A stretch of 64,000 nucleotides of DNA from Chloroflexota bacterium (GTDB lineage Bacteria > Chloroflexota > UBA11872 > UBA12225), in NCBI GenBank assembly GCA_030447525.1, contig JAUJOR010000010.1:141113-205112 (forward strand). Direction: 5' to 3'. Below the pieces are notes generated by a model that saw nothing but the letters and a program-made list of their open reading frames with translations, ran no database searches and was not told where the DNA came from. This document shows, one piece after another, positions 13,150 through 36,141 of the stretch (the stretch's first letter is position 1; each line of letters opens with the position of its first letter). The position numbers were made by a program, and so were the translations under genes.

Positions 13150-13543
13150 TGCACAGAGGAATCGCGATCGCGTGGCAGGTCAGGGGATGCAAAGAGTGCC
13201 GCATGTCCCAACGATCGGCGCATGACCACCTTCAGTCCTACCTACCAGCAAGCACAGCCTGCGACGGCCCGCGGCGGACGCACGAGCGGCCACCCCTCAG
13301 CGCCCGCCCGCGGGCGCCTTCATGTTCGCTACGGGAATCGAGTGCAGCTGTCCGCCTCTGCCCAAGACAAGAACGGCGAACGCCTCCGCCACGACGGCCG
13401 GTGGCAGCGCCGTATCCGTCTTTCAGAACGTACGTGAACCGAGAACAGAGTTTCGCCCCTGCCGACGTGGGGCACCTGGAAGCGAGTGCCGGTGACGTCA
13501 CAGCGGCGTCACAGTGCGCACGCAACGTGCCCGAGGGCGTGCG

Positions 13544-14120
13544 ATGCAAGTCGCCGGCGCCGACTCTCCCCATGCGCTGGGCGTGCTCCCCACGCCGCCC
13601 GCTCCCTTCGCCGCGCTCAGGCGCTTCCCGCGATGCGCGCTCATCGTGCGAGCGGAGTCGCCCGCCCGCAGCGTGTACGTCGTTGGGTCGGGATACGTCC
13701 GCGTCTACTTCCTAGCGGAAACGGGTGAGGAGACCTCGCTGGCCTTGCTCGGTCCCGGCCAGGTCTTCGGCATCGCGGCGCTGCTGGGGTTCCCCACCTG
13801 CCGCGTCTTCGCCGAGGCGCTGACCGCGATCGAGTTGTGGGAGCTGCCGGTGGAGCGGCTGCGCCGGGCGCTGCCGGAGGACACGGCCGTCCTCGGTCTC
13901 CTGGTGGGCGCCCTCGGACGCCGGCTCGCCGCGGCAGAGGCGCTGCTGCGCGACGTCGCGCTGCTGCCCGTGTCCGCCCGCGTATCGGGCCTGCTGGGGC
14001 GCCTCTCCGCCTCTCTGGGCGGCGAGCCGCCGCGGCTGACCAACGAGTACCTCGCGCGCTCGTCGGCGCGCGCCAGACGGTGAGCCGCGCCGGCGCGCGC
14101 CGTTCGCACGGCCGGCGCCA
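13544..14120 (+). pseudogene. Crp/Fnr-family regulator with cNMP-binding domain, frameshifted in the C-terminal HTH
   Basis: The cNMP domain is in frame (YVRVYFLAETGEETSLALLGPGQVFG). The HTH starts RLTNEYLAR and then continues in another frame (LVGARQTVSRA). Confidence 0.5.
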
Positions 14121-14156
14121 CATAAGGCGCGGCCGGCGCGCGGAGTCGCGGATGCC

Positions 14157-14879
14157 ATGGATGGAGGTTCAGGAAGTACGGCCGCTGGCGACCCGGGTGA
14201 GGAGAAGACGTGGTACCTGCGCCGGGTAGACGTCTTCCGCGCCTGTCCGACGACGAGATCGAGCAGGCTCGGAGCGATGCTGGAGGCTCGGGTCTTCTCT
14301 GCGGGCGAGCCTGCTGGTCGCCCTCGACACGCCGCGGCGGCAGGTGTACGTCGTGAAGACCGGGGCCGTTCGGCTGTTCCACCGCGGACCGGACGGGCGG
14401 GTGATCACGGCCGGCACGGTGGAGCGCGGCGGTCTGCTCGGCGTCTCATCGCTCTTCAACGGCACTGCGCAGGACGGCTTCCTCCTGGCCGAGGCGGCCA
14501 GCGAGGTCGTGGCGTGCTTGGGCGACGGCTGGAGCTTCCTGCGCGCTATCACCCGGTGGCCGTCCGTGCTGCTCACGCTGGCCGAGCAGGCTGGGCGCGC
14601 AGGCTCGTGCAGGTGGAGCAGCAGATCGGCGCGGTGGCAGCTGCGGACGCGCGTACCCGCCTCGCCCGCGCGCTGTACCACCTGGCCCGCGATGCGGGCG
14701 AGAGCCTGCCGGGGGACGGACGGCTTATCCGGCTGACGCCGACGCACGCCACGCTGGCCGCGCACATCGGCGCCAGCCGGGAGACGGTCACCCGCGCCCT
14801 TGCGGCGCTCGAGGCGGGCGGGGCTACATCCGGCGCCATGGGCGCCGCACGGTGCTGCCCAACCCCGCGCGGCTGGTGA
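14157..14879 (+). pseudogene. Second Crp/Fnr-family regulator, split over at least two frames
   Basis: The cNMP domain (MYVVKTGAVRLFHRGPDGRVITAGTVERGGLLG) is in frame 14344. The HTH (TRLARALYHLARDAGE...RLTPTHATLAAHIGASRETVTRAL) is in frame 14157. Confidence 0.5.
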
Positions 14880-14919
14880 CTGACTTCGGTCTCCCCGGCG
14901 GCGACTGACTACATCCAGG

Positions 14920-16618
14920 GGGCCTGTTGCCAAAGTCGGGTATGGTGGTCAGGAGGAGCACGGTGCGGGGTACGCGCGCCCCGTGCACGCGACGGGAACG
15001 GCCGCTGGGCCGGACCGGAGCTCGAACCGGGGACAGGCCCGCTTGAGAAGGGGGAGGGGCCCAACGCCGCACCCCCCATGGCCGGGCTGGGGGCGCGCCG
15101 TTGGGCCAGCTTCTTGACGTCGTACGCGATGGCGCGCCCAGCGCCTGGATCAGCACCTTGTCTCGCCCCCGACACTGCGCCCGCCGCAGCCCGTGACGGT
15201 CCTTCAGTTCGGCGTTGGCCGTCTCGACCCAGTACGCGCGCGGCGCCGGCTGCGCTTGGCGGGTGGCGTGCGGAGATAGGCGACGACTCGGTCGCGCAGT
15301 CCCCCATCGTCCGGGCGCACGAGGGTGCGGGCCGCCGGGCCGCAGCAGCACTGCGCCTTGACCGGGCACGCCCCGCAGACCTTCGGCCGCCTGCGGTAGA
15401 TCAGGCCACCGGCCGCCCCGGCAGTGCGCGAGGAGCCCTGGCGGGTGAGGAGCGTTCGGTGGGACACCGATAGCGATTAGCGATCGGCGGCGAACTCGTA
15501 CACGAAGCGGTCGGCAGAGTAGTCACCCCGGTCGCTCATGGTGCTGTGGGGCGGGATGCTCGCCCGGATGCCCTGCTGCTCCAGCGCCACGTAGTTGGCG
15601 TAGGTCCCGTACTTGGTATCCGCCACCACTTCGGCCACCGTACGCCCGGTCGTGCCTCGATGCTCCTTGAGCAGCCGGTCCAGCAGGTGCTCGTCGGCAA
15701 CCTCGCCCGGAGTCACGTCCAGCGCGGTGATGAGACGCGCCCGCCCGCCGTCCACGCCGACGTGCGCCTTGTAATAGAAGGCGTAGGGAGACCCCCTCGC
15801 GCTTGACCAGCCCCGCGTCGGGATCGGTGCGACTGGTCACCAAGGCGTTCACCGGCCCCCTGGTCCCCGTTGGGCACGTCCTCCGGACCGGCCACGTGCA
15901 GCGACGGGCGCGCCGCGCGCGTTCGCCGTGAGGCCACCGGCCGAGTCCGGCGCCGGCTGCTCCCCCTCGCCGGGAGGGCCGGCGGCGGCGTGGGATCGGA
16001 GACGGGATTCTCCTGCCACACCGTCGCGACGTACCCGGCCGCGCTCGGCAGCTGAGTGAGCAGCGCCCGCGCGCCGGCCGACCCAAGACTGGCATTGGCC
16101 TTGACCAGCGTGCTGTCCACGTAGAGGACGTCGCCCCGCACCAGGCCGGCCCGCTCGCGTTTCCACCACCTCGGTGAAAAGCCGCCTGGTACACGGGCAG
16201 GCCGAAGCGCGCCCGCGCCTTGGACAGCATCGAGTGGTCCGGCGCGTCTCGTCGAGGTCGTACCCCAAGAACCAGCGGAAGGCCAGGTGCAGGCGCGCCT
16301 CCTCGGCCAGCCGCCGCTCCGACGTGATGCCGTAGAGGTACCCGAGCAGCATCAGCTTGAACAGCACCACCGGATCGACCCCCGGCCGGCCGGTGTGGCT
16401 GTAGAACCGCGCCGTCAGCCGCCGCACAAAGCTGAGGTCGAGCGCCGCCCCGATGCGCCGCAGCAAGTGGTCGCTCGGGACCTGCGCTTCTAGCGAGAAC
16501 TCGTAGAAGCGCTTCGGCGTGAATTCCTTACGGCCCAACATCGTGCCCCACCTCGAACAGGGAGCCACCATCCTACTCAGACCTCGGCCGGTCCGGCCAG
16601 AGTTTGGCAACAGGCCCC
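14920..16618 (-). mobile_element. IS1182-family (IS5 superfamily) insertion sequence, copy A, with the transposase reading on the minus strand and frameshifted
   Basis: The 1699-bp element is bounded by terminal inverted repeats GGGGCCTGTTGCCAAA. Transposase pieces are FYEFSLEAQVPSDHLLRRI...GYLYGITSERRLAEEARLHLAFRWFLGYDLDE, VLYVDSTLVKANASL, DTKYGTYANYVALEQQGIRASIPP and the C-terminal CPVKAQCC...ETANAELKDRHGLRRA, spread over three or more frames. Confidence 0.8.
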
Positions 16619-16887
16619 AGGGAGGTGCTGCAAGACACCGCCGGGAGCGTCCGCCTCAGCTTGACCTCGCCCGCTGGAGTCGCGGGGTGGGAACATGTCT
16701 GGCGGAATGCGCCCGAGCACACCGTGTGCCGCCGTTTTGGAATGGCGGGAGCCATTGGGGGGGATGCGTATTTCCGATGCAGACGCGGTTGTGACGAATG
16801 TGACGGAATCGGTGCCGGCAACGGCCTACGATGGCTTCAACCCCAGGGGACTCACTCTTCCCGTGCCCTGGGGCAGAGGGGGGCATC

Positions 16888-19281
16888 ATGAGCAAGCGGA
16901 ACACCATGGCGACGGCGGGCAAGACTCTCCCCAGGCTTCTGGCGGCCGCAGGGCTGACGTTCGTGCTGGTCATCCCGCCGGCCGTGCTGGCGGCCGGCAG
17001 CGCCGCCCCTGAGGCCGCGCCTGGGGCCGCTACCGGGGCGTCGGCAAGCGCGCAACTCGCGTCTTCGCCGGGATTCCCGCTGGTGCAGTTGCCGCCCGGG
17101 TTCATGATCGAGAAGGTGGTGGACGGTCTGACCTACACCACGGGCATGACGTGGGACGATCAGGGACGCATGTACGTGCTGGAGGCGGGCGGCCAGTTCG
17201 TGGAAGAGGAGCCGCCCTCGCGCATCCTCCGCATCGAGCCCGGCCGCGCCACCGAGGTAGCGGATTTGGCCGCTATGGGCGTCGCTGATTCCGCGGTGGG
17301 CATCACCTGGCACAACGGCGCCTTCCTGGTGACGCACCGCGACAGCCGAGACCGCTCCGGCGCCGTCTCTCGTGTGACGCTGGACGGTCAGCGCACGCAG
17401 CTCTTCAGCGGGATCATGGACAGCCAGTCCGAGCACCAGATCAACGACGTCAAGATCGGCCCGGACGGCCGCGCCTACGTTGCTGTGGGACCGGCTAGCA
17501 ATGCGGGCGTGGTCGGCATCGACCTGGCGCCGTTCACGATGCGCAGCCCGGGCGTGCACCACCACCCGTGCCAGGAGATCGTGCTCACCGGGCGCAACTA
17601 CCGCACGCCGGACTTCCGCTCCAGGGAGGTGCAGGGCGACCTTGCTAACACGGGCGCCTTCGTGCCCTTCGGCACGCCGACCGAGCCGGGGCAGGTGATC
17701 AAGGGCACCAACAAGTGCGGCGGCGCCATCCTGGTGTTTGACCCGGCCAGTCCGGCCAGTGCCGAGGCCACCCTGCGCCCCTACGCGCACGGCTTCCGCA
17801 ACGTCATCGGCGTGGCCTGGACGACGCGGGGTGAGATGTACGCTGGAGTCAACGGCTATGACATCCGCGGCTCGCGCTCCGTCAGGGATGAGTGGGATGC
17901 AACCTACCGTGTCCAGGAGGGGGTGTGGTACGGCTGGCCGGACTTCTCGGCAGCGCTGGAGCCGGTGACCGAGCGTAAGTTCGAGGTGCCGGACGCGAAC
18001 CAGGCACCGGTTTTCATGCGGGGCGTGGCGCAGGGCAAGGACCTGGGGTTCGTCATCGACCACGCGGCGAGCGGCCTGATGCCACCCGATCGTTCGCTGG
18101 TGGCCGGGCTGCACCTGTGGAACTCCTCGCCGTCCATGCTTGACGTGGCGCCGGCGTCCTGGGGCGACATGGCCGGGCAGTTGTTCGTCGCTGAGTGGGG
18201 CGACCTGGCGCCGCCCACCAATCCGCTTGCCGGTAGCCCCTCCGGCTACCAGATCACGCGCATCGACCCCGCCTCCAAGCGTGCGATGCCCTTCGCCCGC
18301 AATGCCAAGCTCGGGCCGGCCTCGGCGCAGGGCGCGCCGGGAATGGGGCTCGAGCGGCCGTTCGACGTGAAGTTCGGGCCCGACGGCGCGATGTACATCT
18401 CTGACTACGGTGTGGCGCGCATCAACCCGGCGCGCACGGCGGAGGGCAAGCCGCCCTACGAGTTCCCGGTAGGGACGGGCGCCATCTGGAAGATCAGCCG
18501 CACCGCCGCGGGGCCGGGCGAGTTCCCGCACGCCATTGACGGGCGCACGATCTTCGACGAGCCCATGCCGACCCAGGTCCAGTTCCGCGCGGTGTACGGT
18601 GGGCGCACGCTCGAGGAGTGGGCGGCCCAGCACACCGCCGAGCTCCGCGCCGCCCGGAGTGATCGGGGAAGCGCCACCTACCGCGTCACCATCGAGAACC
18701 TCACCCAGGGCCAGCCCTTCTCGCCGCCGGTACTGGCGGCCCACGGCGGCGGCTTCGACATGTTCGAGGTGGGCCGCGCCGCCTCGGACGAGCTCGCCGC
18801 CATCGCCCAGGACGGTGAGCCGGGGCCGATGTTCCTCGCCGCCAGGGCCTCCGGGAGCGTCACCGAGGCGGTGAATGCCGGCGCGGCGGTGCCGCCCAAG
18901 GGGATGCTGAGGCGGGAGATCCGGGCGAACCACGGCGACCGGCTGTCCATCGCCTCGATGCTCGTCTGCACCAACGACGGGTTCTGGGCCCTGGACGCCG
19001 TGGCCCTCCCGGCGCAGGGAGCGCAGTCCTTCATGGCCACCGGGTACGACGCCGGACGCGAGCAGAACACCGAGCAGAGCGAGCACATCGTCGATACGTG
19101 CAGCATCCCACGGCCCCTGCCGGGCGACAACGACGGCAACATGAACCGGCCCGTGGCATCCAACCCGGTGGAGCCTATCCGGGACCATCCCGGCGTCAAG
19201 GGCACGGGCGAGCTCGATCCCGGCTTCCATGGATTCGCCAATCCTGTGGCCAGGATCACCGTCGAGCGCGTCGGCGCATAA
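16888..19281 (+). CDS. Secreted two-domain protein: SGL/sorbosone-dehydrogenase-like six-bladed beta-propeller fused to a C-terminal spondin-N (reeler-like) domain
   Basis: The ATG at 16888 is preceded by AGAGGGGGG. The N-terminus has a signal peptide (LLAAAGLTFVLVIPPAVLAAGSAAPEA). Propeller motifs include DVKFGPDGAMYISDYG. The C-terminus (ATYRVTIENLTQGQPFSPPVLAAHGGGFDMFEVGRAASDELAAIAQDGEP...MLVCTNDGFWALD) matches spondin_N. Confidence 0.6.
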   Translation: MSKRNTMATAGKTLPRLLAAAGLTFVLVIPPAVLAAGSAAPEAAPGAATGASASAQLASSPGFPLVQLPPGFMIEKVVDGLTYTTGMTWDDQGRMYVLEAGGQFVEEEPPSRILRIEPGRATEVADLAAMGVADSAVGITWHNGAFLVTHRDSRDRSGAVSRVTLDGQRTQLFSGIMDSQSEHQINDVKIGPDGRAYVAVGPASNAGVVGIDLAPFTMRSPGVHHHPCQEIVLTGRNYRTPDFRSREVQGDLANTGAFVPFGTPTEPGQVIKGTNKCGGAILVFDPASPASAEATLRPYAHGFRNVIGVAWTTRGEMYAGVNGYDIRGSRSVRDEWDATYRVQEGVWYGWPDFSAALEPVTERKFEVPDANQAPVFMRGVAQGKDLGFVIDHAASGLMPPDRSLVAGLHLWNSSPSMLDVAPASWGDMAGQLFVAEWGDLAPPTNPLAGSPSGYQITRIDPASKRAMPFARNAKLGPASAQGAPGMGLERPFDVKFGPDGAMYISDYGVARINPARTAEGKPPYEFPVGTGAIWKISRTAAGPGEFPHAIDGRTIFDEPMPTQVQFRAVYGGRTLEEWAAQHTAELRAARSDRGSATYRVTIENLTQGQPFSPPVLAAHGGGFDMFEVGRAASDELAAIAQDGEPGPMFLAARASGSVTEAVNAGAAVPPKGMLRREIRANHGDRLSIASMLVCTNDGFWALDAVALPAQGAQSFMATGYDAGREQNTEQSEHIVDTCSIPRPLPGDNDGNMNRPVASNPVEPIRDHPGVKGTGELDPGFHGFANPVARITVERVGA

Positions 19282-19386
19282 TCACCGCACGGGGTCTGCT
19301 CTGGGAGACCTCGCGGCGCAGACGGAATGGAACCTGCCAAGGTGGAGACACAGACGCATGGGGGGGTGTCCGGTTGGACTGACATT

Positions 19387-20640
19387 ATGGCCCCACGGAA
19401 CGGTGAACACCGGGGTAGCCGGCATGGGGCCTTCATGTTCGCTACGGGAATCGAGTGCAGCTACCCCGTCATTGCGAAGGATGGAAGGTCGCACCGGCAG
19501 GATTCGCTGGAGAAGGGCGGCCACTACCGGTATTGGCGCGAGGACCTGCGCCTCGTCCGCGAGGAGCTGGGGCTCACCTACCTGCGCTACGGCACGCCGC
19601 TGCACCGCGTGTTCATTGGTCCCGGCCGCTACGACTGGGCCTTCACAGACGACGTACTTGCAGAGATGGAGCGGCTGGGCATCGTGCCCATCGTGGACCT
19701 GTGCCACTTCGGGCTGCCGGACTGGCTGGGCAACAGCTTCCAGAACCCGGACGTGCCCCGCCACCTGGCGGAGTACGCCCGCGCGTTTGCCCGGCGGTTT
19801 CCCCGGGTGCACCTCTACACACCGGTGAACGAGATCTACGTCTGCGCCAAGTTCTCCGGCCTGACCGGCTGGTGGAACGAGCGCCTGGCGAGCGAGCGCG
19901 GCTTCGTCACCGCGCTCAAGCACCTGTGCCTCGCCTCCCTGGACATGATGGAGCAGATCCTGGCGGTGCGGCCGGACGCCGTCTTCGTCCAGAGCGAATC
20001 CAGCGAGCAGTTCCACCGCTCCTGCCCCTCACCGGAAGCCGGCGAGCTCACCGCCTTCGAGAACGAGCGGCGCTTCCTGGCGCTGGACGCGCTCTATGCG
20101 CGGCCGCTCAGCGCCCGCATGGAGCGCCACGTCCTGGAACACGGCGTCACGCGCGCCGACCTGGACCGCTTCATGAACAACACGCTGGGCGAGCGCTGCA
20201 TCATGGGCAACGACTACTACGCGACCAACGAGCACATGGTCATGAGCGACCTGTCCATCCGCGCGGCCGGGGAGGTCTTCGGCTGGTACCTGGTGACACG
20301 CCAGTACTACGCGCGCTACCGCCGGCCGGTGATGCACACCGAGACCAACACCCTCAACTGCAGCACGGACCCATCGGACTGGCTGTGGAAGCAGTGGCAC
20401 AACGTGCAGCACATGCGCAGCGAGGGCGTGCCGGTCCTGGGCTTCACCTGGTACTCGCTGACGGACCAGGTGGACTGGGACAGCGCCCTGCGCGAGGACA
20501 ACGGCACCGTCAACGAGATCGGGTTATTCGACCTGGACCGCAAGATCCGGCCCGTCGGGCGCGAGTACCGCGAGCTGGTGCGCCTCTTCGGCGCGGTTCC
20601 GCTTGTGCCCAAAGCGCCATTCCTGGGAGCAGGTTTGTGA
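19387..20640 (+). CDS. GH1-like (family 1 glycosylhydrolase-related) protein of the FMFATGIE subgroup
   Basis: The family N-terminus AFMFATGIECSYP is present with a TIM-barrel-like remainder. An alternative start is the ATG at 19435. The stop TGA overlaps the next gene's GTG start (GTGA). Confidence 0.55.
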   Translation: MAPRNGEHRGSRHGAFMFATGIECSYPVIAKDGRSHRQDSLEKGGHYRYWREDLRLVREELGLTYLRYGTPLHRVFIGPGRYDWAFTDDVLAEMERLGIVPIVDLCHFGLPDWLGNSFQNPDVPRHLAEYARAFARRFPRVHLYTPVNEIYVCAKFSGLTGWWNERLASERGFVTALKHLCLASLDMMEQILAVRPDAVFVQSESSEQFHRSCPSPEAGELTAFENERRFLALDALYARPLSARMERHVLEHGVTRADLDRFMNNTLGERCIMGNDYYATNEHMVMSDLSIRAAGEVFGWYLVTRQYYARYRRPVMHTETNTLNCSTDPSDWLWKQWHNVQHMRSEGVPVLGFTWYSLTDQVDWDSALREDNGTVNEIGLFDLDRKIRPVGREYRELVRLFGAVPLVPKAPFLGAGL

Positions 20641-22055
20641 CCGTAAGCGCAGTGCAGGGGTCGCGCGTGGCAATCGCCCATACCGTGGAGAAGCACCGCT
20701 CGCCCGAGCGCGTCGAGAGGCTGGTGAAGGAGGCGCTGCAGCACCTCGGCGGCATTTCTGCCTTCGTCGCACCCGGAGACACCGTGTTCATCAAGCCTAA
20801 CCAGACGGTCTTCTACTCCGCTGAGGAGGGCTGCACCACCGATCCGCTGGTGGTGGGGGCGCTCATCCGGCTCTGCAAGCGCGCCGGCGCGGGCCGGGTG
20901 CAGGTGGGCGAGTCCAGCGGCGACTTCTTCGATTCCATCAAGAACATGCACATCACCGGCATGGCGCAGGTGGCGGAGAAGCACGGCGCGGAGCTCCTGG
21001 ACCTGGGGAGCGACGACGTGCCCAACCGCACCGTCCCCATCCCGCGCGGCGCCGTCATCAAGGCCGTGCCCCTTCCCACGCCTCTGCTGGACGCGGACGT
21101 GATCATTGACGTCCCCAAGGCCAAGAACCACCACATCGAGCCCATCTCCGGCGCGCTCAAGAACTGGGTGGGGGCCGTCAACCGCAGGTGGCGCGCCCAC
21201 AACCACGGCGACGAGGACATGACCGAGCGGTTCATGGACATCATGACCGTCTCCCGGCCGCACCTGTGCGTGGTGGACGCCCTGATCTGCGGCGAGGGGG
21301 ACGGCCCCATCGCCAACCAGCCCCACTGGTGCGGCGCCATCCTCGCCTCGGACGATCCCGTGGCGACGGACGTGGCCATCGCCCGCCTGATGGGGCATGA
21401 CTGGACGAAGCTGCGCTTCGCTGAGGAGGCCGAGAAGCGCGGGCTGGGCACCCGCACCCACATCGAGTACCTCGGCGTGCCACTGGACTCCATCGCCTTC
21501 GAAGCGTGGGCGGGGCACCACGGTTACGGCTACCTGCCGGTGAATTTCTTGGTCGGCGACGGGGTCACGCTGGAGGGTACCGTCGGCCACGTCAAGAGCG
21601 CGCTGGACAGCCTGCTGCGGCGCGGCGAACTGGCCGAGGTGATCTGGCTCAAGGGGACGCCGACCCTGATGATCGGGCGGATCGAGGACCCGCACTTCGA
21701 GGAGCACCTCAAGGAGGGGCCGTACGTCGTCTTCGACGACGCCGCGCTGCCTAGGTACAAGGAAGACCCGCGCGTCACGTTCATCCCCGGCCACCCCGTG
21801 CTGCGCGAGGGCATGCCGGGGCTGATGAAAGGACTGGGGGTGAAGGTGCCCGGCCAGACGGTGATGCAGTGGCAGCAACTCCAGCGCTGGGGCATGCACC
21901 TGCTGGAGTACGGCTCGGGGAAGCAGATCGCGCGGGCGGCCGGAAAGACGGCCGTGGGTGTGGGGCTGGGGGCGGCCGGGCTGGCGGCGGCGGTGATTGG
22001 CGCCAGAAGGCTGTCTGGATTGGCCGGAACCGCCGGAGGCGTCAATCGTGGATGA
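20637..22055 (+). CDS. DUF362 domain protein
   Basis: The GTG start overlaps the upstream stop. VFIKPNQTVF...DPLVVGALIRLCKRAGAGRVQVGESS matches the DUF362 core. The C-terminus is hydrophobic and Gly/Ala-rich. The gene lies inside a spurious 866-aa ORF-track frame. Confidence 0.55.
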   Translation: MTVSAVQGSRVAIAHTVEKHRSPERVERLVKEALQHLGGISAFVAPGDTVFIKPNQTVFYSAEEGCTTDPLVVGALIRLCKRAGAGRVQVGESSGDFFDSIKNMHITGMAQVAEKHGAELLDLGSDDVPNRTVPIPRGAVIKAVPLPTPLLDADVIIDVPKAKNHHIEPISGALKNWVGAVNRRWRAHNHGDEDMTERFMDIMTVSRPHLCVVDALICGEGDGPIANQPHWCGAILASDDPVATDVAIARLMGHDWTKLRFAEEAEKRGLGTRTHIEYLGVPLDSIAFEAWAGHHGYGYLPVNFLVGDGVTLEGTVGHVKSALDSLLRRGELAEVIWLKGTPTLMIGRIEDPHFEEHLKEGPYVVFDDAALPRYKEDPRVTFIPGHPVLREGMPGLMKGLGVKVPGQTVMQWQQLQRWGMHLLEYGSGKQIARAAGKTAVGVGLGAAGLAAAVIGARRLSGLAGTAGGVNRG

Positions 22056-22608
22056 GACAGGCGACGGCTCGGCGGTGGAGCAGGTGCGGCGCTTCCTCTT
22101 CTCGGGCTACGCGCACGAGCACCGGCCGCTGGGCGCCTACGCTACTCTAGTGGCGCTCTTCAACGCCCTCTTCGCTGGGTTTCTGCTCACCACCAAAGCG
22201 GCTGACCGGCGCATCCCGGAGCGCGTGTCCGCAGGAGATATCGTGCTGCTGGGGGTCGCCACCCACAAAGCGAGTCGCCTGCTGTCGCGGGACTGGGTGA
22301 CCAGCTTTCTGCGCGCGCCGTTCACGCGCTTCGAGGGCAAGGGCGAGCTTCCCGCGGAGGTGAGCGAGGAGCCGCGCGGCCGGGGCTTCCGGTACGCCAT
22401 GGGCGAGCTGCTGACCTGCCCTTATTGCGTGGGGCAGTGGCTGGCGGCGTTCTTTGCGTACGGGCTGGTATTCAAGCCGCCGGCAACGCGGCTGGTGGGC
22501 AGCGTGTTCGCCATACTCACCATTGCCGACTTCTTGCACCTGGCGTACGTCATCGCGGAAGAGCAGACCGAGCCGGACACGTCCACGCCTTCGGAAGCCA
22601 TACCATGA
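22051..22608 (+). CDS. DUF1360 family membrane protein
   Basis: The GTG start overlaps the upstream stop. LLTCPYCVGQWLAAFFAYGL is the DUF1360 signature, with two or three TM segments. Confidence 0.55.
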   Translation, partial: DETGDGSAVEQVRRFLFSGYAHEHRPLGAYATLVALFNALFAGFLLTTKAADRRIPERVSAGDIVLLGVATHKASRLLSRDWVTSFLRAPFTRFEGKGELPAEVSEEPRGRGFRYAMGELLTCPYCVGQWLAAFFAYGLVFKPPATRLVGSVFAILTIADFLHLAYVIAEEQTEPDTSTPSEAIP

Positions 22609-23864
22609 GGGACGATTGCTTCGGGGGAAGCACCGCCACACAGCGTCCATGCGCCCACAGCACAGGAGTATCGCGCCCATGGCACCCGCCGCCTCCCCCA
22701 ACTCCCCCCAATTCACTCGCTTCTCCTGCGTCGCGCACCTTCCCCCGGCGCACCGCCCTTGGCTCCCTGGGCGCCCTCGCCGCGCTGGGTAGCGCCGCGT
22801 GCGGCCAGGCTTCGCAGGCGCCAGCCGGCACGCGGCGCCCATTCGAGGGTCGATCGCTGACCATCTTCGTCTACACCGGCATCTGGGAGAAGTGGTACCG
22901 CGAGCTCTTCGTGCCCGCGTTCGAGGCGGAAACCGGTGCCAAAGTCATCGTTGATGCCGGCTGGTGGGACGCGCTGCCCAAGCTCAAGATCGCTCCGCCG
23001 GACCAGCCACCGTTCGATCTGATGCTGACCGACCCAACGCAGGGGTTCCCCGCCATCCGAGATGGGCTGGCCGCCAAGCTCAACCTGAGCAACATTCCCA
23101 ACGTGAAGCGCTTCGCACCCAAGGTGCTCGACGCGTCAGTCTTCAAGGATGGCTGGGGCGTGCCGCACATCTCCTCCCCCATGACGCTGGCCTGGGATAA
23201 GGAAGCGCTTCCCGCTGGACTCAAGGGCTGGGGTGACCTGCTGGAAGCGCCGGCGCGGGGCAATTTCACGGCCTACGGCTCCTACTACATGGGACCCTTC
23301 ACCTTTGCGGCCATCAAGGCAGCGCGGGAAGGCAAGGCGGGCCAGGCCCGCCAGATGGTGGAGAACGACCTGGATGGGGTGCTCAATTACGCCAAGGAGC
23401 ACCGTGACGCGGTGAAGTACTGGTGGTCGGCGACGACCGACGCAGTGCAGGCATTCCTGAACAAGAACGTCGTGGCCGGATCGCTGCACGGGAACGGGCT
23501 GCTTGCCCCGCTGCGCGACAAGAAGCCGATCGACTTCGTCATCCCGGAGCGCGATCGTGCCTACGTGCAGCTCTTCTGGCTGGTGCCCAAGGGATCCAGG
23601 AACAAGGACGTGGCCGAAACGGCGCTGAACCACATTACCGGCAGCACCTTCCAGTGGAACCTGGCCAGCAAGAGCGGCGAGCTGGCGACGCACCACCCGG
23701 AGGCTGCGGAGCAGATCGGGGCGCAGGACAAGCTGTGGGGCCGCGTCTACCCGTCCGCCGCGCCCGACTGGGCCAACCTCAGCTACTACCCCTACGAGTT
23801 CTACGACAAGAACGACAAGAAGATCGCGGACTTTTGGAACCGGGAGGTTCTGCGCAAGGGATGA
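22605..23864 (+). CDS. ABC transporter substrate-binding protein (PotD / iron(III)-type SBP fold)
   Basis: The ATG at 22605 overlaps the upstream stop (ATGA). It has a Tat/lipoprotein-like [20 protein letters not shown] and SBP-like domains. Confidence 0.6.
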
Positions 23865-24564
23865 TGCCGCCGGCCGTCGCGCTGGCTGAGGTCTCCAGGC
23901 GCTACGCCCCCGGCGCGCCGCCTGCGCTGGACCACCTCACGCTTGAAGCGCGCGAGGGCGAGTTCCTCTTTCTCCTGGGACCGAGCGGCTCCGGCAAGAC
24001 GACGGCGCTGCGCCTGATCGGCGGGTACGAGCGCCCCGATTGTGGCGAAGTGCGGCTGGGCGGCGTGCTGGCCAACCCCACGCCATCGGCCTGGCGCACG
24101 CCATGTGGACGCTGCCGCTCGCCTTTCTCGCGCTGCGCGCCGCGTTGGCCACGGTGGACCGGCGCCTGGAGGAGGCGGCGCGTGGACTGGGCGCGCATCC
24201 GGCGCGCGCCTTCATGTTGGTCACGCTGCCCCGTCTCTGGCCCGCCATCGAGGCCGCGGCGTTCCTGTGCGCCGTGATGTCGCTGAACGAGCTGCCCACG
24301 GCGCTCTTCCTGTCCACTCCCGCGGGGCGCACACTGCCCACGCTGATCTGGCCGCAGCTGCGCTACAACCTCACGCCGCTCGTCGACGCCGCGTCTGGGC
24401 TGCTCCTGCTCCTCACCGTGGGCGGTCTGGGCCTGTCCGGGCTGCTCGGCTCGCGCCGGTGGCGCCGCGGGTCGGACGAGACACCGGCTGCCCGCGCTGC
24501 CCGTGCGGCGCCAAACGAGACTGACCATGGATCGCTCGCCGTTCTCGTTTCGCGCCCTGCTTGA
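23861..24564 (+). pseudogene. Deletion remnant: ABC ATPase N-terminus (Walker A) joined to the C-terminus of an ABC permease
   Basis: [68 protein letters not shown] is followed, after a frame change near 24070, by the permease tail [56 protein letters not shown]. Confidence 0.6.
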
Positions 24565-26125
24565 GGCGCAGGCGGCACGCGAGGGCGCGCGGCCGTTCTT
24601 CACCTTTGGTGGGCACACTTGGACCGCTGCTGAGATGGATGCCGGCGCCAACCGCCTGGCCAACGTGCTGCGGGATGCGGGAATTGGACGCCGCGACCAT
24701 GTGGCCGTGCTGCTGCCCAATGGCCCGGAGATCGTCTGGTGTTGGTGGGGGCTGGCCAAGCTGGGCGCCGTGTACGTCCCTGTCAACACGCAGCTCGTCG
24801 GCGAGAGCCTGGCGCACGTGTTGACCCATTCTGAGGCCGTGGCGCTGGTCACCACCGACCCGTTGCTTGCCCAGGCCCGCGCGGCGCTGCCCGCCTGGCC
24901 CGCCGCCCTGCGGCACGTCCTCTCCGGCGCCGGCCTGTCCGGGCGCGTGGCTGCCGCCTCGCCCGCGCCACCGCCCGCGGTGGACGAGCGGCCCGAAGAC
25001 CCAGCCCTCATCATCTACACCTCGGGCACCACCGGTGCGCCCAAGGGTGTGCTCTGGAGCCGTCGGGCGCAAACGCACCACGCGCGCCGCTACGCCGCGG
25101 AGCTCAACTGCGCCGAACCGGGCGAATCGGTCTACACGTGCCTGCCCTTCTTCCACGTCACGTCGATCGGCGTCTCCATCTCCAGCTACTTGCGCGGTGC
25201 GCGCGTCGCCGTCGATTCGGCTTTCGACCCGTTCTCTCACTGGCAGCGCATCCGTGAAGAGCGCGCGGTGCTCTTCCCGTACGTTGGCGCCATCTTGAGC
25301 CTGCTGCACAAGCGCCCGCCGCGCCCAGACGACGCCGACAACCCGGTGCGCTGGGCGATGGGTGCCGCCGCCCCAAAGGAGATCTGGGAGCCGGTGGAAC
25401 GTCGCTTCGGCCTGCGCCTGGTGGAGACGTACGGCCAGACCGAGTTTGCCGGCCACTGGCTGATGCGTCCCCTAGCCGACCGCACCGTCGGCGGCAAACC
25501 CGGCACCGTCGGGAAACCGCCGGCGCGGCTGGCGGTGAAGCTAGTGGACGAGCAAGGCCGGGAGATCATCGCCCCGGACGTGCCGGGTGAGCTCGCCGTC
25601 CGCGCCGCCAGCGCGCATCTGCTGATGGAGGGCTACTATAAGCAGCCAGACGCGTCCGCGCGCGCTTTCCGCGACGGCTGGTACTCCACCGGGGACCGCC
25701 TCTCGCGCGACGCGGACGGCTATTTCACCTATCACGGCCGCCTAAAGGACTTCATCCGCCACCGCGGCGAGAACGTGTCCGCGTTCGAGGTCGAGCTGAC
25801 CGTCTCGCAGCACCCGGCGGTACTCGAATGCGCCGCCGTGGGCCTACCGTCGGACCTGGGCGAAGAAGACGTGCTGCTCTGCGTCGTTCCGCGCGACACC
25901 GCCGCACAGGACGCGCAGGATACCCAGAACACGCGTGATCCCGAAGCGCTCTACGCCTGGTGTCGCAGACGCCTGGCGCCGTTCATGCTGCCGCGCTACA
26001 TCCTCTACCTGGAGGCGCTGCCCAAGACCGCCACTCAGCGCGTGCGCAAGTTCCTGCTCGCGGAGCGCGGCGCTGCCGGCGCCTGGGACCGGCAGCATCC
26101 CTGGCCAGGTCAGCGCCGGCGCTGA
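24527..26125 (+). CDS. AMP-dependent synthetase/ligase (acyl-CoA synthetase family)
   Basis: It has IIYTSGTTGAPKGV (AMP-binding motif I), YGQTEF, WYSTGDRLSRDADGYFTYHGRLKD and a C-terminal LPKTATQRVRK motif. The ATG lies at 24527. Confidence 0.8.
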   Translation: MDRSPFSFRALLEAQAAREGARPFFTFGGHTWTAAEMDAGANRLANVLRDAGIGRRDHVAVLLPNGPEIVWCWWGLAKLGAVYVPVNTQLVGESLAHVLTHSEAVALVTTDPLLAQARAALPAWPAALRHVLSGAGLSGRVAAASPAPPPAVDERPEDPALIIYTSGTTGAPKGVLWSRRAQTHHARRYAAELNCAEPGESVYTCLPFFHVTSIGVSISSYLRGARVAVDSAFDPFSHWQRIREERAVLFPYVGAILSLLHKRPPRPDDADNPVRWAMGAAAPKEIWEPVERRFGLRLVETYGQTEFAGHWLMRPLADRTVGGKPGTVGKPPARLAVKLVDEQGREIIAPDVPGELAVRAASAHLLMEGYYKQPDASARAFRDGWYSTGDRLSRDADGYFTYHGRLKDFIRHRGENVSAFEVELTVSQHPAVLECAAVGLPSDLGEEDVLLCVVPRDTAAQDAQDTQNTRDPEALYAWCRRRLAPFMLPRYILYLEALPKTATQRVRKFLLAERGAAGAWDRQHPWPGQRRR

Positions 26126-26201
26126 CCTGGCCAGGGGGGTGAGTTACAGCCATGCACACGTCTACCGGCTATTGACCGGCGTACGTGAGTACGTGAGTAC
26201 G

Positions 26202-27485
26202 ATGCCTCCATCCGCCGCCGGTCCGTTGCGCCGCGCTGTGATCACCGGGATAGGCGCGGTCACGCCACTGGGACTGTCAATGCCGGAGACGTGGCGCCGC
26301 CTGGTGGCCGGCGAGAGTGGCATTGGACCCATTACGCTCTTCGACGCCGCCGCCGTGGGGACGGAGACGCGCATCGCCGGTGAGGTGAAGGGCTTCGACC
26401 CCGGCGCGTTCATGGACGCGAAGGCCGCCCGGCGCATGGACCGTTTTACGCAGTTCGCCGTCGCCGCCGCCGGCATGGCGCTGCACGACGCGCGATTCAC
26501 CATCGACGACTCCAACCGCGACGACGTCGCCGTGCTAGTCGCCACCGGCGCGGGCGGTCTGGCCAGCATCACCGAGACTGAGCACGTACTCATGGAGCGC
26601 GGGCCGAAGCGTGTCAGCCCGTTCTCCGTGCCGATGCTGATGTCCAACGCCGCCGCGGGGCAGATCGGCATCCAGTTCGGCGCGCGCGGCATGGGCGGTG
26701 CCTTCGTCTCCGCCTGCGCCAGCGCCAATGACGCCATCGGGCTGGCTCTGATGGCGATCCAGACCGGGCGCGCCACTGCCGTCATCGCCGGCGCCAGCGA
26801 AGCGTGCGTTACCCCGCTGTGCGTCGCCTGCTTCGACCAGGCCGGCGCCCTCTCCAAGACGCACAATGACGACCCAACGGCGGCATCGCGCCCCTTCGAC
26901 AAAAACCGCGATGGGTTCGTGCTGTCGGAGGCGGCCACCGTGCTGATCGTGGAGGAGCTGGACGCGGCCCGGGCGCGCGGCGCCACCATCTGGGCCGAGC
27001 TGGCGGGGTACGGTGCGAGCATGGATGCCTTTCACCTCACCGCCCCACCACCGGGTGGCGAGGGCGCGGTGCGCGCCATGCGCGCTGCGCTGCGGTCGGC
27101 CGGCATGCGCCCGGACGATGTGGACTACGTCAGCGCCCATGGCACCAGCACGCCGCTGAACGACAAGACCGAGACGCTTGCCATCCGCACCGTCTTCGGC
27201 GCGCACGCCGACCGGCTGCTGGTCAGCAGCCTCAAGAGCATGGTGGGGCACTCCGCCGGCGCGTGCGGGGCGCTGGAAGCCGCCGCCTGTGCGTACACCA
27301 TCCGAAAAGGGATCGTGCCGCCGACCATCAACTACGGCACCTCCGATCCCGACTGCGACCTGGACTACGTACCCAACCAGGCGCGGCGCGCCCCAGTGCG
27401 GACCGCGCTCTCTAATTCCTTTGGTTTCGGCGGCCACAACTCGTGCCTGGTGCTGCGGGCGTGGCGTGACCGGCACCGTTGGTGA
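26202..27485 (+). CDS. fabF: Beta-ketoacyl-ACP synthase II (KAS II)
   Basis: 427 aa with the active-site Cys region GMGGAFVSACASANDAIG and the His-His pair (VSAHGTSTPLND, MVGHSAGACG). A tandem GTACGTGAGTAC x2 sits immediately 5' of the ATG. Confidence 0.8.
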   Translation: MPPSAAGPLRRAVITGIGAVTPLGLSMPETWRRLVAGESGIGPITLFDAAAVGTETRIAGEVKGFDPGAFMDAKAARRMDRFTQFAVAAAGMALHDARFTIDDSNRDDVAVLVATGAGGLASITETEHVLMERGPKRVSPFSVPMLMSNAAAGQIGIQFGARGMGGAFVSACASANDAIGLALMAIQTGRATAVIAGASEACVTPLCVACFDQAGALSKTHNDDPTAASRPFDKNRDGFVLSEAATVLIVEELDAARARGATIWAELAGYGASMDAFHLTAPPPGGEGAVRAMRAALRSAGMRPDDVDYVSAHGTSTPLNDKTETLAIRTVFGAHADRLLVSSLKSMVGHSAGACGALEAAACAYTIRKGIVPPTINYGTSDPDCDLDYVPNQARRAPVRTALSNSFGFGGHNSCLVLRAWRDRHRW

Positions 27486-27571
27486 GGCCGGCGCCGCGCT
27501 AGATGCTTCCACCGAGTTGTTGCGAGCGAATCCGGCTTCCCCGATCTGGGTCGGACCTGCAGGTACCCCAA

Positions 27572-29274
27572 GGGGCCTGTTGCCAAACTCTGGCCGGACC
27601 GGCCGAGGTCTGAGTAGGATGGTGGCTCCCTGTTCGAGGTGGGGCACGATGTTGGGCCGTAAGGAATTCACGCCGAAGCGCTTCTACGAGTTCTCGCTAG
27701 AAGCGCAGGTCCCGAGCGACCACTTGCTGCGCGCATCGGGGCGCGCTCGACCTCAGCTTTGTGCGGGCGGCTGACGGCGCGGTTCTACAGCCACACCGGC
27801 CGGCCGGGGGTCGATCCGGTGGTGCTGTTCAAGCTGATGCTGCTCGGGTACCTCTACGGCATCACGTCGGAGCGGCGGCTGGCCGAGGAGGCGCGCCTGC
27901 ACCTGGCCTTCCGCTGGTTCTTGGGGTACGACCTCGACGAGACGCCGCCGGACCACTCGATGCTGTCCAAGGCGCGGGCGCGCTTCGGCCTGCCCGTGTA
28001 CCAGGCGGCTTTCACCGAGGTGGTGCGCAGTGCGAGCGGGCCGGCCTGGTGCGGGGCGACGTCCTCTACGTGGACAGCACGCTGGTCAAGGCCAATGCCA
28101 GTCTTGGGTCGGCCGGCGCGCGGGCGCTGCTCACTCAGCTGCCGAGCGCGGCCGGGTACGTCGCGACGGTGTGGCAGGAGAATCCCGTCTCCGATCCCAC
28201 GCCGCCAGCGGCCCTCCCGGCGAGGGGGAGCAGCCGGCGCCGGACTCGGCCGGTGGCCTCACGGCGGCGCGCGCGCGCGCCCGTCGCTGCACGTGGCCGG
28301 TCCGGAGGACGTGCCCAACGGGGACCAGGGGCCGGTGAACGCCTTGGTGACCAGTCGCACCGATCCCGACGCGGGGCTGGTCAAGCGCGAGGGGGGTCCC
28401 CTACGCCTTCTATTACAAGGCGCACGTCGGCGTGGACGGCGGGCGGGCGCGTCTCATCACCGCGCTGGACGTGACTCCGGGCGAGGTTGCCGACGAGCAC
28501 CTGCTGGACCGGCTGCTCAAGGAGCATCGAGGCACGACCGGGCGTACGGTGGCCGAAGTGGTGGCGGATACCAAGTACGGGACCTACGCCAACTACGTGG
28601 CGCTGGAGCAGCAGGGCATCCGGGCGAGCATCCCGCCCCACAGCACCATGAGCGACCGGGGTGACTACTCTGCCGACCGCTTCGTGTACGAGTTCGCCGC
28701 CGATCGCTAATCGCTATCGGTGTCCCACCGGGCGTGGCACCCTCACCCGCCAGGGCCTCCTCGCGCACTGCCGGGGCGGCCGGTGGCCTGATCTACCGCG
28801 GGCGGCCGAAGGTCTGCGGGGCGTGCCCGGTCAAGGCGCAGTGCTGCGGCCCGGCGGCCGCCCGCACCCTCGTGCGCCCGGACGATGGGGGACTGCGCGA
28901 CCGAGTCGTCGCCTATCTCCGCACGCCACCCGCCAAGCGCAGCCGGCGCGCCGCGCGTACTGGGTCGAGACGGCCAACGCCGAACTGAATGGACCGTCAC
29001 GGGCTGCGGCGGCGCAGTGTCGGGGGCGAGACAAGGTGCTGATCCAGGCGCTGGGCGCGCCATCGCGTACGACGTCAAGAAGCTGGCCCAACGGCGCGCC
29101 CCCAGCCCGGCCATGGGGGTGCGCGTTGGGCCCCTCCCCCTTCTCAAGCGGGCCTGTCCCCGGTTCGAGCCTCCGGTCCCGGCCCAGCGGGCCGTTCCCG
29201 TCGCGTGCACGGGGCGCGCGTACCCCGCACCGTGCTCCTCCTGACCACCATACCCGACTTTGGCAACAGGCCCC
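27572..29274 (+). mobile_element. IS1182-family insertion sequence, copy B (plus orientation), transposase frameshifted
   Basis: The 1703-bp element has the same terminal repeats and internal sequence as copy A but in inverted orientation. Its indels differ from copy A (for example DLDETPPDHSMLSKARARFG reads through here). Confidence 0.8.
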
Positions 29275-29425
29275 AAGGAAGCACTTAGTGGGTCACGTTG
29301 CATTTAACTGGCGATGACCTGACCTGGTGAGCAAACCATTTATCTGCGGGTGGTGATTATATACTTGACGCAGTAGGAAACCTGTGAGACAATGTACTGG
29401 AACAAGAGTCCTAAGGTTGCCTACG

Positions 29426-30413
29426 ATGCCGAAGGCGAAGCCGGTTGATCCGCTCGAACTGACCACCAGCAGCATCGCGAAGTTCTTCTCTACGGAAGAG
29501 GACGCGTGGCTGATGGTGGAGCGGCTGCGCTGGCCTACGGGCACGGTCTGCCCGCACTGCGGCGTGATCGGCAATGCGACCTACCTCACGCCGAAGTCCG
29601 GCTATCGGACGACGCGGGCGGGCAACACGTCCTACCGTCGCGTATGGCAGTGCCGTGAGCGGGAATGCGGGCAACAGTTCAGCGTGCTCGTGAACACGGT
29701 GATGGAAGACACCAAGATCCCGGTGAGCAAGTGGCTGCTGGCGATGCACATGCTGTCCGCCGGCAAGAACGGCGTCTCCGCCCACGAGCTGCACCGGACG
29801 CTCGGCATCACCTACAAGAGCGCGTGGTTCATGGCCCACCGCATCCGCTACGCGATGGCGGAACCGGCGCGCGTCCTGTTGGGCGGCGTCGTAGAGGCCG
29901 ACGAGACCTACGTCGGCGGGCGCATCAAGCGGGCGCACGGTACCCCTAAGTCAAACAAGACTCCCGTCGTGACGCTGGTGAGCCGCGACGGCGAGGCGCG
30001 CTCCCAAGTCATGCACGCCGTGACGGGCGCGAACATCGGGCGGGTGCTCACGGAGCACGTTGCGCCGAGTGCCACGCTGATGACCGATGAGGCTTCCTTA
30101 TAGAGCCGGGTCGCGGGTTCGCCGGCCACGAGACGGTCAACCACAGCGCCGACGAGTATGTACGCGGGAGCGCCTACACCAACACCGTCGAAGGGTTCTT
30201 CAGCCAGCTGAAGCGCAGCATCGACGGGACGCACCACCACGTCAGCGAGTGGCACCTACACCGCTACTTGGCCGAATTTGACTTCCGCTACAATGCGCGC
30301 AAGATCAAGGACGGCGAGCGCACGGAACGTGCCTTTCAACAGGTGGCTGGAAAGCGGTTGATGTACCGGGACTCGTTGGGCGCCGCCGGATCGCCGCTGT
30401 CACGGTAGCGGCG
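29426..30413 (+). pseudogene. IS1595/ISXO2-like transposase with a single frameshift near 30100
   Basis: The N-terminal Zn-ribbon is WPTGTVCPHCGV...WQCRERECGQQF, followed by VEADETYVGG. After LMTDEASL there is a stop, and the protein continues in the +2 frame as FAGHETVNHSADEYVRGSAYTNTVEGFFSQLKRSIDGTHHHVSEWHLHRYLAEFDFRYNARK. Confidence 0.7.
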
Positions 30414-30428
30414 GGGGAGTGGACGCGC

Positions 30429-30635
30429 ATGGCGAAGCAAATCGGGCTGCATTTGGAGGGGGGCATGATATCTGCCCAGGTCTACCACCAGAAGGTGGGG
30501 GATTTCCTCGACATGCTCCGTGCCATAGACCGGAACGTTACCGAGGATATGGCTCCTGAATCCGATGCCCAGACCTCTATTACGTGGCTCGTGGAGAACG
30601 TGAGGAAGGGCAGCCTCGATCTGGCGCTCCAATGA
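30429..30635 (+). CDS. Hypothetical small protein, passenger of the IS1595-like element
   Basis: 68-aa ORF with no recognisable family. It overlaps the next ORF by a few nucleotides. Confidence 0.25.
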   Translation: MAKQIGLHLEGGMISAQVYHQKVGDFLDMLRAIDRNVTEDMAPESDAQTSITWLVENVRKGSLDLALQ

Positions 30636-30639
30636 CGGC

Positions 30640-33103: not shown

Positions 33104-33192
33104 CCACCTGGCGCAGCTCTCTGAGTCCCAGAGCGGGGAGGTGCGTATCCTAAGGGCCATCCAGCCGATGCGCTGCGTGGGGAGGAACCGAA

Positions 33193-36115: not shown

Positions 36116-36141
36116 GGCCAAGCCGCGCGACCGCGTAGGAA

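Follow-up and report, generated by a model that had tools for sequence, protein, structure and literature searches.

The 64-kb stretch of DNA analysed here (the window) contains two copies of one insertion sequence (IS), named IS-L and IS-R, which lie in inverted orientation 10,953 bp apart and enclose a secreted β-propeller protein gene with a spondin domain, GH1-like, DUF362, DUF1360 and SBP_bac_8 genes, an ABC transporter remnant, an acyl-CoA ligase gene and fabF (Table 1). Domain matches confirmed this list of cargo genes, which had been drawn up in the initial annotation, and the 'ABC remnant' named there is a deletion scar in which an ATPase N-terminus (with a Walker A motif; ABC_tran profile positions 1–47 of 137) is joined, in a different frame, to a permease C-terminus (BPD_transp_1 positions 62–175 of 184). 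The flanks are indeed strewn with gene fragments, as had been remarked, including a CrtI-like piece, a GH1 scrap and two broken Crp/FNR genes, a split IS1595 transposase and a truncated SBP gene.

Table 1. Features in and around the IS pair (window coordinates).
Feature	Position	Strand	Remarks
VKOR	homology from 11846, ORF ends 12296	+	left flank, outside the IS pair
CrtI-like C-terminal fragment	12340–13149	−	left flank
GH1 scrap	13313–13349		37 nt, left flank
Crp/FNR 1	13514–14083		left flank, frame-broken
Crp/FNR 2	14157–14908		left flank, more than two frame switches; stop 10 nt before IS-L
IS-L direct repeat	14915–14920 (left), 16617–16622 (partner)		CCAGGG; informative centre AG/AG
IS-L	14919–16618	− (transposase strand)	1,700 bp; 11 transposase frame breaks
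IS-L inverted repeats	14919–14934, 16603–16618		16 bp, perfect
Shared 1-nt deletion	within 15122–15141 (IS-L), 29051–29070 (IS-R)		
Shared 7-bp tandem duplication	15471–15484 (IS-L), 28703–28716 (IS-R)	+ (IS-R)	ATCGCTA twice in tandem, frame-breaking
Propeller-spondin gene	16831–19281	+	cargo gene 1; secreted β-propeller (DUF7133/GSDH-like), C-terminal spondin domain
GH1-like	19327–20640	+	cargo core
DUF362	20640–22055	+	cargo core
DUF1360	21997–22608	+	cargo core
SBP_bac_8	22425–23864	+	cargo core
ABC fusion (deletion scar)	23861–24564	+	ATPase part 23861 to about 24070; permease part 24040–24564
Acyl-CoA ligase	24503–26125	+	cargo
FabF	ORF 25935–27485	+	TIGR03150 fabF match, residues 99–508, 565.6 bits; stop 86 bp before IS-R
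IS-R direct repeat	27568–27573 (partner), 29273–29278 (right)		CCAAGG; informative centre AA/AA
IS-R	27572–29274	+	1,703 bp, same IS as IS-L; 12 transposase frame breaks
IS-R inverted repeats	27572–27587, 29259–29274		16 bp, perfect
IS1595/ISXO2-like element	29352–31113	+	1,762 bp; inverted repeats about 25 bp (GGTGATTATATACTTGAC core)
SBP gene C-terminal remnant	31115–31400	+	residues 361–454; intact in a 90% relative (L065)

Self-BLASTN of the two copies showed 97.5% identity across 1715 columns, and the terminal inverted repeat (IR), GGGGCCTGTTGCCAAA, is perfect over 16/16 bp at all four ends. With up to two mismatches allowed, the 14-nt IR core (GGCCTGTTGCCAAA) occurs four times in the window where 0.29 occurrences are expected (0/100 shuffles reached four), and the identity between the copies drops from 97.5% to approximately 57% exactly where the IRs end. 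The description of two near-identical, inverted 1.7-kb copies with a common terminal repeat was thus borne out, as were the strands and the coordinates of IS-R (27572–29274), while IS-L starts at 14919, one position before the 14920 first assigned to it.

The stitched (frameshift-repaired) transposase scored 331.9 bits against NCBIfam NF033551 (IS1182; cutoff 270), supporting the family assignment made at the outset, and the next best family, IS5, reached 101.8 bits, below its cutoff of 140. DUF772 (PF05598), DDE_Tnp_1 (PF01609) and DDE_Tnp_1_6 (PF13751) domains were all detected above their gathering scores, and the arrangement of an N-terminal DUF772 and a C-terminal DDE domain is also precomputed for 120 homologues. 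IS1182-family elements are reportedly about 1.3–1.95 kb long, a range that includes both copies; the same domain architecture, a length in the family range and short IRs are shared with IS1272, ISBma2 and ISMno9. The closest intact homologues, soil-metagenome sequences of 510–550 aa, were up to 78% identical (76–78%), and a protein database of 5.8 billion clusters, which does include proteins from the same genome as the window, yielded none exceeding 78% identity. Annotated plasmid-borne IS1182 members showed only 33–37% amino acid identity, a search of plasmid DNA returned only 67–71% matches to the N-terminal region and no close named relative, and the IS terminus gave only a chance match in GTDB-representative contigs, inside a low-GC homoserine-kinase gene, so that either the source species or the IS itself is absent from those representatives. 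IS-L and IS-R are copies of a previously undescribed IS1182-family IS of 1.70 kb with 16-bp IRs.

Frame breaks were counted with a custom frameshift-aware aligner, using an intact 78%-identical homologue as the reference; IS-L has 11 and IS-R has 12, at least two of them common to both copies. The earlier observation that the copies carry different transposase frameshifts was therefore correct in that both are frameshifted, but it missed these shared lesions, one of which, the 7-bp tandem duplication, would alone inactivate both transposases. The segments YVDSTLVKANAS, VVADTKYGT and WVETANAELK, which from their conserved motifs we take to hold the catalytic D, D and E residues, are recognisable but non-functional remnants, each in a frame of its own in IS-L and with the E motif broken in IS-R. 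As read from their coding sequences, both transposases are dead, in contrast to those of intact members of the family, and no intact copy of the IS was found within the 64-kb window; the two copies are presumably immobile at present.

The differences between IS-L and IS-R comprise 23 indel events and 12 substitutions, and 20 of the indels are of 1 nt, mostly changes in the length of G/C runs, whereas the usual neutral mutation spectrum is the reverse. This excess, odd for natural decay, would be explained if most of the private frameshifts were assembly or consensus artefacts, arising either from homopolymer errors in unpolished long reads or from a short-read path threading variants of many IS copies, and in that case the two copies would be almost the same and their decay less advanced than the sequence suggests. 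Positions 29293–33621 were reproduced at 100% and without gaps, including the frameshift in the IS1595-like transposase, by an independently assembled Logan short-read contig; the contig ends at the IS boundary, so that this confirmation covers the flank and not the IS interior, which is consistent with such artefacts. However, the exact agreement over this adjacent 4.3 kb with its own frameshifted transposase, the intact long unique ORFs (up to 936 aa), the broken frames of the non-repeat neighbours of IS-L (both Crp/FNR genes) and the shared 7-bp duplication, which is atypical of sequencing error, make an artefactual origin unlikely. The matching repeats on either side of each IS also argue against assembly misjoins.

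Each of these repeats belongs to one IS copy only. Both insertion sites are CCNNGG mini-palindromes with a duplication of 2 bp (up to 6 bp), of which only the central dinucleotide is fully informative, as CC..GG may also represent a target preference or an extension of the IR; the outer CC/GG of the IS-L repeat overlaps the G/C run of the IR. The outer ends of the pair, where a target-site duplication (TSD) would have been expected had the whole unit transposed, do not match (CCAGGG at IS-L, CCAAGG at IS-R), and each IS is instead paired with itself. This pairing, together with the mismatch between the outer ends, indicates two separate insertions. The outer flanks nevertheless differ at just one position (AG vs AA), and a missing outer TSD carries less weight than usual in this family, since transposition of IS1272, another of its members, can leave no TSD (PMC4923244, PMC5678879).

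Some IS1182 members, such as IS1272, are reported to insert into hairpin or palindromic targets. IS-free alleles would join ...CATCCAGGG to AGGTGCTG... and ...CCCCAAGG to AAGCACTT...; the reconstructed empty sites of IS-L and IS-R folded no better than shuffled sequences (z = +0.24 and −0.70), so hairpin targeting as in IS1272 is unsupported at the two window sites. In contrast to the blunt, TSD-less insertion of IS1272 into hairpins, the window copies lie within short CCNNGG duplications at sites without a significant hairpin. At the insertion site in one relative (L067) the fold was significant (z = −2.29), with the IS at the hairpin apex, and three metagenomic relatives lacked clean flanking duplications. 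Neither an IS-free Crp-spondin junction nor an IS-free junction downstream of fabF was found in relatives, and no true empty site was observed.

Intact relatives of the window IS possess a single long ORF that meets no stop codon inside the element and continues across the right IR, as reported for IS1272 (PMC4923244). Translation across the IR as FGNxP was seen in 29 homologues, of which 25 end exactly four residues later, mostly as xGSI-stop, and a GGAWGCAYTTAG-like motif lies immediately outside the right IR at all five junctions examined. The possibility that the 14-nt tail outside the right IR belongs to the element was rejected for the window copies, where identity collapses at the IRs and no duplication lies beyond the tail. 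The copies, 97.5% identical inside, share only 8/14 nt in this tail, which suggests that the motif is part of a favoured target site and does not travel with the element; the transposase ORF of this clade may lack a stop codon of its own and be completed by the target. A scan of viral contigs for further right ends gave two matches, distant or due to chance.

The cargo is compositionally host-like, with tetranucleotide correlations of r = 0.97–0.98 and a GC content of 0.689 compared with 0.69–0.71 in the flanks. A tblastx comparison between cargo and window returned only high-GC noise. Synteny was compared across 60 related metagenomic loci around DUF362. Neither the cargo as a block nor the IS occurred in any of them (0/60); only GH1, DUF362 and DUF1360 co-occurred, their linkage being kept in many loci, and the spondin, SBP, acyl-CoA ligase and FabF genes were never found within 10 kb of DUF362. 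A search for the cargo in another context or free of the IS, as had been proposed, thus recovered this three-gene core alone. In a 77% relative (L002) the propeller-spondin gene is unlinked to the GH1 cluster, and in three loci (L046, L050 and L062) VKOR, which lies outside the IS pair in the window, adjoins the GH1/DUF362/DUF1360 cluster. The 10.95-kb cargo probably belongs to the resident chromosome and would have been a mosaic by the time the IS copies inserted. As an observation in its own right, the GH1-like/DUF362/DUF1360/VKOR cluster is widely conserved and constitutes a minor lead.

These data bear on whether the 11-kb segment moved in as a unit, or could still be mobilised by transposase supplied in trans, as a genuine composite transposon. 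In favour of this, the segment has a copy of one IS on each side and the outer ends are usable, all four 16-bp IRs being intact; the outer flanks agree at three of the four informative positions, and the shared lesions would imply at least one past mobilisation in trans. There are, moreover, precedents in the IS1272-based composite transposons TnSha1 and TnSha2, which carry sh-fabI (Furi et al. 2016, PMC4923244) and likewise combine an IS1182-family element with a fatty-acid-synthesis gene, integrated TnSha2 generally lying between two IS copies, and TSD-less insertion is possible in this family (PMC4923244). TnSha1/2, however, occur at many sites in many strains with an intact transposase and partial deletion of the target hairpin, whereas the window unit has been seen once, with native mosaic cargo, dead transposases and a separate footprint for each IS. 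Similarly, the pair resembles Tn5/Tn10-type compound transposons in its inverted arrangement and intact outer and inner IRs, but differs from them in having no shared outer TSD, functional transposase, other occurrence, or selectable or foreign cargo. Under transposition as a unit, the perfect repeat at each copy would require two coincidences, and the differing outer repeats, the native cargo with its internal scar, the absence of the unit from all 60 related loci, the position of the conserved partner VKOR outside the pair and the failure to find an intact transposase in the window or the 5.8-billion-cluster database likewise oppose it. An intact helper copy was sought in the window and among called proteins, a search that an uncalled copy elsewhere in the genome would escape. 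The 14.4-kb composite transposon with an 11-kb cargo advanced in the initial annotation is therefore very unlikely: the pair is composite-like in geometry only, without evidence that the unit ever moved.

On the right, the IS1595-like element beside IS-R marks the true synteny breakpoint, collinearity with the 90% relative (read set SRR22405824) beginning at the SBP remnant (31115). This neighbour shares Zn_ribbon_IS1595 and DDE_Tnp_IS1595 domains and terminal IRs with the IS1595 family (ISXO2-like), but differs in its length of 1.76 kb with an extra 177-aa ORF, in a transposase split once by a frameshift and in the absence of an 8-bp TSD at its ends, which indicates that one flank was replaced by rearrangement. 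On the left, the orientation of the CrtI-like fragment relative to DUF362 is opposite to that in another relative (L007). Together with the inverted orientation of the IS copies, this would be compatible with a single intramolecular event, either a replicative transposition that placed the second copy in inverse orientation or homologous recombination between the two copies with inversion of the segment. Such an event, however, would split or swap the target duplications, whereas the repeats at each copy still form a matching direct pair, and L007 is only 77% related, with the CrtI gene of the window a truncated fragment displaced by other events; we consider this origin highly improbable. The IS-mediated inversion to which the CrtI/DUF362 orientation had pointed was rejected on the same repeat pattern, and because the swap it would produce is absent, no inversion appears to have occurred since insertion.

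Taken together, the locus probably records two independent IS1182 insertions around resident mosaic DNA that never moved as a unit and is not a composite transposon. On a high-GC chromosome, probably of a member of the Chloroflexota, the IS would have inserted twice between genes and in opposite orientations, 10 nt past a Crp/FNR stop codon and 86 nt past that of fabF, each insertion duplicating the centre of a CCNNGG-type target. Since IS-L and IS-R have two frame-breaking lesions in common, we infer that the parent copy was already defective before the second insertion, in which case at least that insertion would have been catalysed in trans, unless the lesions spread later by gene conversion. 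Both copies would then have decayed further, leaving a region that, with the IS1595-like element and several deletions, is best regarded as a rearrangement scar.

The locus is thus an ordinary case of a scarred genome rather than a novel mobile element, and it offers a worked example that an inverted IS pair around genes does not amount to a composite transposon unless junctions and synteny support that reading. It is a tentative and rather doubtful proposition that the IS1182 clade of the window IS is a sequence-specific inserter and that the indel-dominated decay of the two copies stems, possibly, from an unusual mutational regime in the lineage. The conserved right-flank motif supplying the transposase stop codon would be a minor lead for specialists. 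Beyond annotation the finding has little import, adding to the IS1182 family a defunct new element whose high-GC soil lineage has been little sampled.

The repeat finder, a MAFFT alignment and self-BLASTN all recovered a left (IS-L) and a right (IS-R) inverted copy of one element, 97.5% identical over 1715 aligned columns, so the pair described in the initial annotation stands, with its coordinates right to within one base. The exact sequence GGGGCCTGTTGCCAAA is found at all four ends; the terminal 14-nt core has four matches in the window when ≤2 mismatches are allowed (0.29 expected; four reached in 0 of 100 shuffles), and no further full or partial copies were present in the 64 kb. Three-frame translation of both copies spread the pieces of a long transposase over all frames, and the stitched protein scored 331.9 bits against NCBIfam NF033551 'IS1182 family transposase' (cutoff 270 bits), in agreement with the family originally proposed, and contained the Pfam domains DUF772, DDE_Tnp_1 and DDE_Tnp_1_6. 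Among 5.8 billion protein clusters, >1000 homologues were found, the best of which were intact, 510–550 aa proteins from soil metagenomes with 76–78% identity, whereas annotated plasmid-borne IS1182 transposases showed just 33–37%; the element is thus a new member of the known IS1182 family.

On the plus strand, the junctions read ...CATCCAGGG / GGCC...GGCC / CCAGGGAGG... for IS-L and ...TACCCCAAGG / GGCC...GGCC / CCAAGGAAG... for IS-R, giving each copy its own direct repeat (CCAGGG and CCAAGG, respectively), of which only the central dinucleotide (AG/AG and AA/AA) is strictly informative because the inverted repeat (IR) starts with a G run. A mini-palindromic target is the best reading of the CC..GG context in both repeats. 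Between the copies, identity falls from 97.5% to ~57% exactly where the IRs end, which defines the duplicated unit. Had the 14.4-kb unit (both copies and the DNA between them) transposed as the composite transposon initially suggested, the repeats at its outer ends should match and the inner junctions be unrelated; the reverse was observed, and the differing repeats at the outer ends rule against such an event. Inversion through recombination between the copies and intramolecular replicative transposition would each swap or split the repeats, which was not seen. We consider it probable that a new IS1182-family element inserted here twice, independently, that both copies are now dead, and that they would enclose resident mosaic DNA within an IS-scarred region.

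Profile matches bore out the genes first listed for the 10.95 kb between the copies (the cargo). The GH1-like protein scores only 60.8 bits against a curated GH1 beta-glucosidase cutoff of 478.5. In composition the cargo cannot be told apart from the remainder of the window (tetranucleotide r = 0.97–0.98; GC 0.689 vs 0.69–0.71), the sole outlier in the window being an IS1595-like element (Table). A deletion scar lies within the cargo itself: the N-terminal 70 residues of an ABC ATPase (Walker A) are joined directly, with a change of frame, to the C-terminal half of an ABC permease. A metagenome scan for DUF362 identified 60 related loci, across which only the GH1-like, DUF362 and DUF1360 genes co-occur, and their order varies; genes for the spondin protein, SBP, acyl-CoA ligase and FabF were never within 10 kb of DUF362, so the cargo was not found as a block in these relatives. 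The spondin gene's 77% relative lacks a neighbouring GH1 gene. The three-gene cluster, often with a VKOR-family gene, is conserved, with variable gene order, on dozens of soil-metagenome contigs (L005–L064). VKOR adjoins the DUF362 cluster in loci L046, L062 and L050, the last a close relative (87% nucleotide identity in DUF362, 79% in VKOR). In the window, VKOR lies outside the IS pair, and near it a 37-nt island encoding GAFMFATGIECS, with unrelated sequence on either side, is identical at 36/37 positions (97%) to the start of the conserved GH1-like region in the cargo; this island is probably all that is left of a second GH1 paralogue beside VKOR, as in L046. Flank and cargo thus share parts of a single native neighbourhood.

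Coordinates of features in the window
Feature	Position	Strand	Remarks
Solute-binding-protein genes	2680-4392, 34703-37461, 41080-45297, 53050-54591		41080-41913 appears truncated
VKOR	11846-12296		left of IS-L
CrtI-like C-terminal fragment		opposite strand	left of IS-L; 85% aa identity to intact gene in metagenomic locus L007
37-nt island	13313-13349		matches 19426-19462
Two Crp/FNR genes	13514-14908		left of IS-L; cNMP-binding and HTH domains in different frames
IS-L	14919-16618	- (transposase)	
GH1-like/DUF362/DUF1360 cluster	19327-22608		
ATPase/permease fusion	23861-24564		
IS-R	27572-29274	+	
7-bp tandem duplication	15471-15484 (IS-L), 28703-28716 (IS-R)		common lesion
1-nt deletion	within 15122-15141 (IS-L), within 29051-29070 (IS-R)		common lesion
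Motif outside right IR	14905-14918 (IS-L), 29275-29288 (IS-R)		
IS1595/ISXO2-like element, 1,762 bp	29352-31113		77 bp right of IS-R; IRs ~25 bp
177-aa ORF	30640-31173		no Pfam hit
Truncated SBP gene, last 94 codons	31115-31400		directly adjoins IS1595-like element
GC3 phase changes	54700-57600	-	

From 31115 on, the window is collinear with L065, a 90% relative (90–94% nucleotide identity), which instead carries, upstream of this part, SBP, SBP and cupin genes that are all intact. Because collinearity begins there, it is the IS1595-like element, and not the IS1182 pair, that marks the true synteny break. This element has low GC (0.624), a transposase split by one frameshift and an extra ORF, and no 8-bp target-site duplication was found at its ends. 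The Logan contig L066 (SRR24765285) starts 19 bp outside IS-R, where a k=31 graph would predict a start ~30 nt inside; the sample may contain a further context for the 48 bp immediately right of IS-R.

Frameshift-aware protein-to-DNA alignment against P0001, an intact transposase homologue with 78% identity, revealed that the frame is broken 11 times in IS-L and 12 times in IS-R; in IS-L each of the three catalytic segments falls in a frame of its own, and in IS-R the E motif itself is disrupted. At least two lesions are common to both copies, so their common ancestor was already defective. Mobilisation in trans, or else later gene conversion, would be implied; no intact helper transposase is known, as nothing >78% identical was found in a protein database that holds the source genome's proteins P0121 and P0246 at 100%. 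The copies differ by 12 substitutions and 23 indel events, most of which alter a G/C run by 1 nt. Normal neutral decay has the reverse spectrum, which raises the suspicion that the frameshifts are consensus or assembly artefacts in a repeat. We regard this as improbable and think the decay is real, since L066, an independent short-read contig, matches 29293-33621 gaplessly at 100.000% (covering the IS1595-type frameshift but starting outside IS-R), unique ORFs as long as 936 aa remain unbroken, the non-repeated Crp/FNR genes adjoining IS-L are frame-broken too, and a 7-bp duplication is an atypical read error. Such decay, by 1-nt indels between the IS copies and by frame switches in the Crp/FNR genes, could stem from a mutational regime prone to indels or from leftover assembly error. 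The Crp/FNR genes are inactivated by frame switches, not by stop codons; this is confirmed by Pfam for the second gene, while the displaced HTH of the first was recognised by eye alone.

Named homologues of genes in the window are mostly from Chloroflexota, and the window contains no tRNA genes or Rfam families. On the minus strand, the GC3 frame plot changes phase (1, 0, 1, 2, 1) over ~3 kb with short ORFs only; a further frameshifted gene, or a group of small ones, may account for this. Solute-binding-protein paralogues across the window number at least seven (23–31% mutual identity), many such paralogues being typical of a sugar-scavenging soil organism.

IS1272, of the IS1182 family, inserts at hairpins without any target-site duplication and builds the composite elements TnSha1 and TnSha2 (PMC4923244, PMC5678879). 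Clean duplications were absent at the junctions of three metagenomic relatives (L003, L004 and L067). The reconstructed empty sites of the window copies folded no better than shuffles (z = +0.24 and -0.70); the L067 site folded better (z = -2.29). In L067 (760-800 / 2505-2535) a long hairpin that folds significantly, CCTCGC..CTAAATGC (IS) GCATTTAG..GCGAGG, has the IS at its apex, in agreement with the targeting reported for IS1272. As also reported for IS1272, the transposase ORF of this clade has no internal stop and continues through the right IR; 25 of 29 homologues with the FGNxP read-through stop exactly four residues on, mostly as xGSI. A GGAWGCAYTTAG-like motif lies directly outside the right IR in fixed phase at 5/5 DNA junctions (IS-L, IS-R, L003, L004 and L067) and supplies an in-frame TAG in four of these copies. 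Only 8/14 nt agree between the window copies at this position, so the motif would seem to belong to a preferred target, not to the element. As a tentative and rather doubtful proposal, a target-derived motif would imply that insertion is sequence-specific and that the target completes the transposase ORF.
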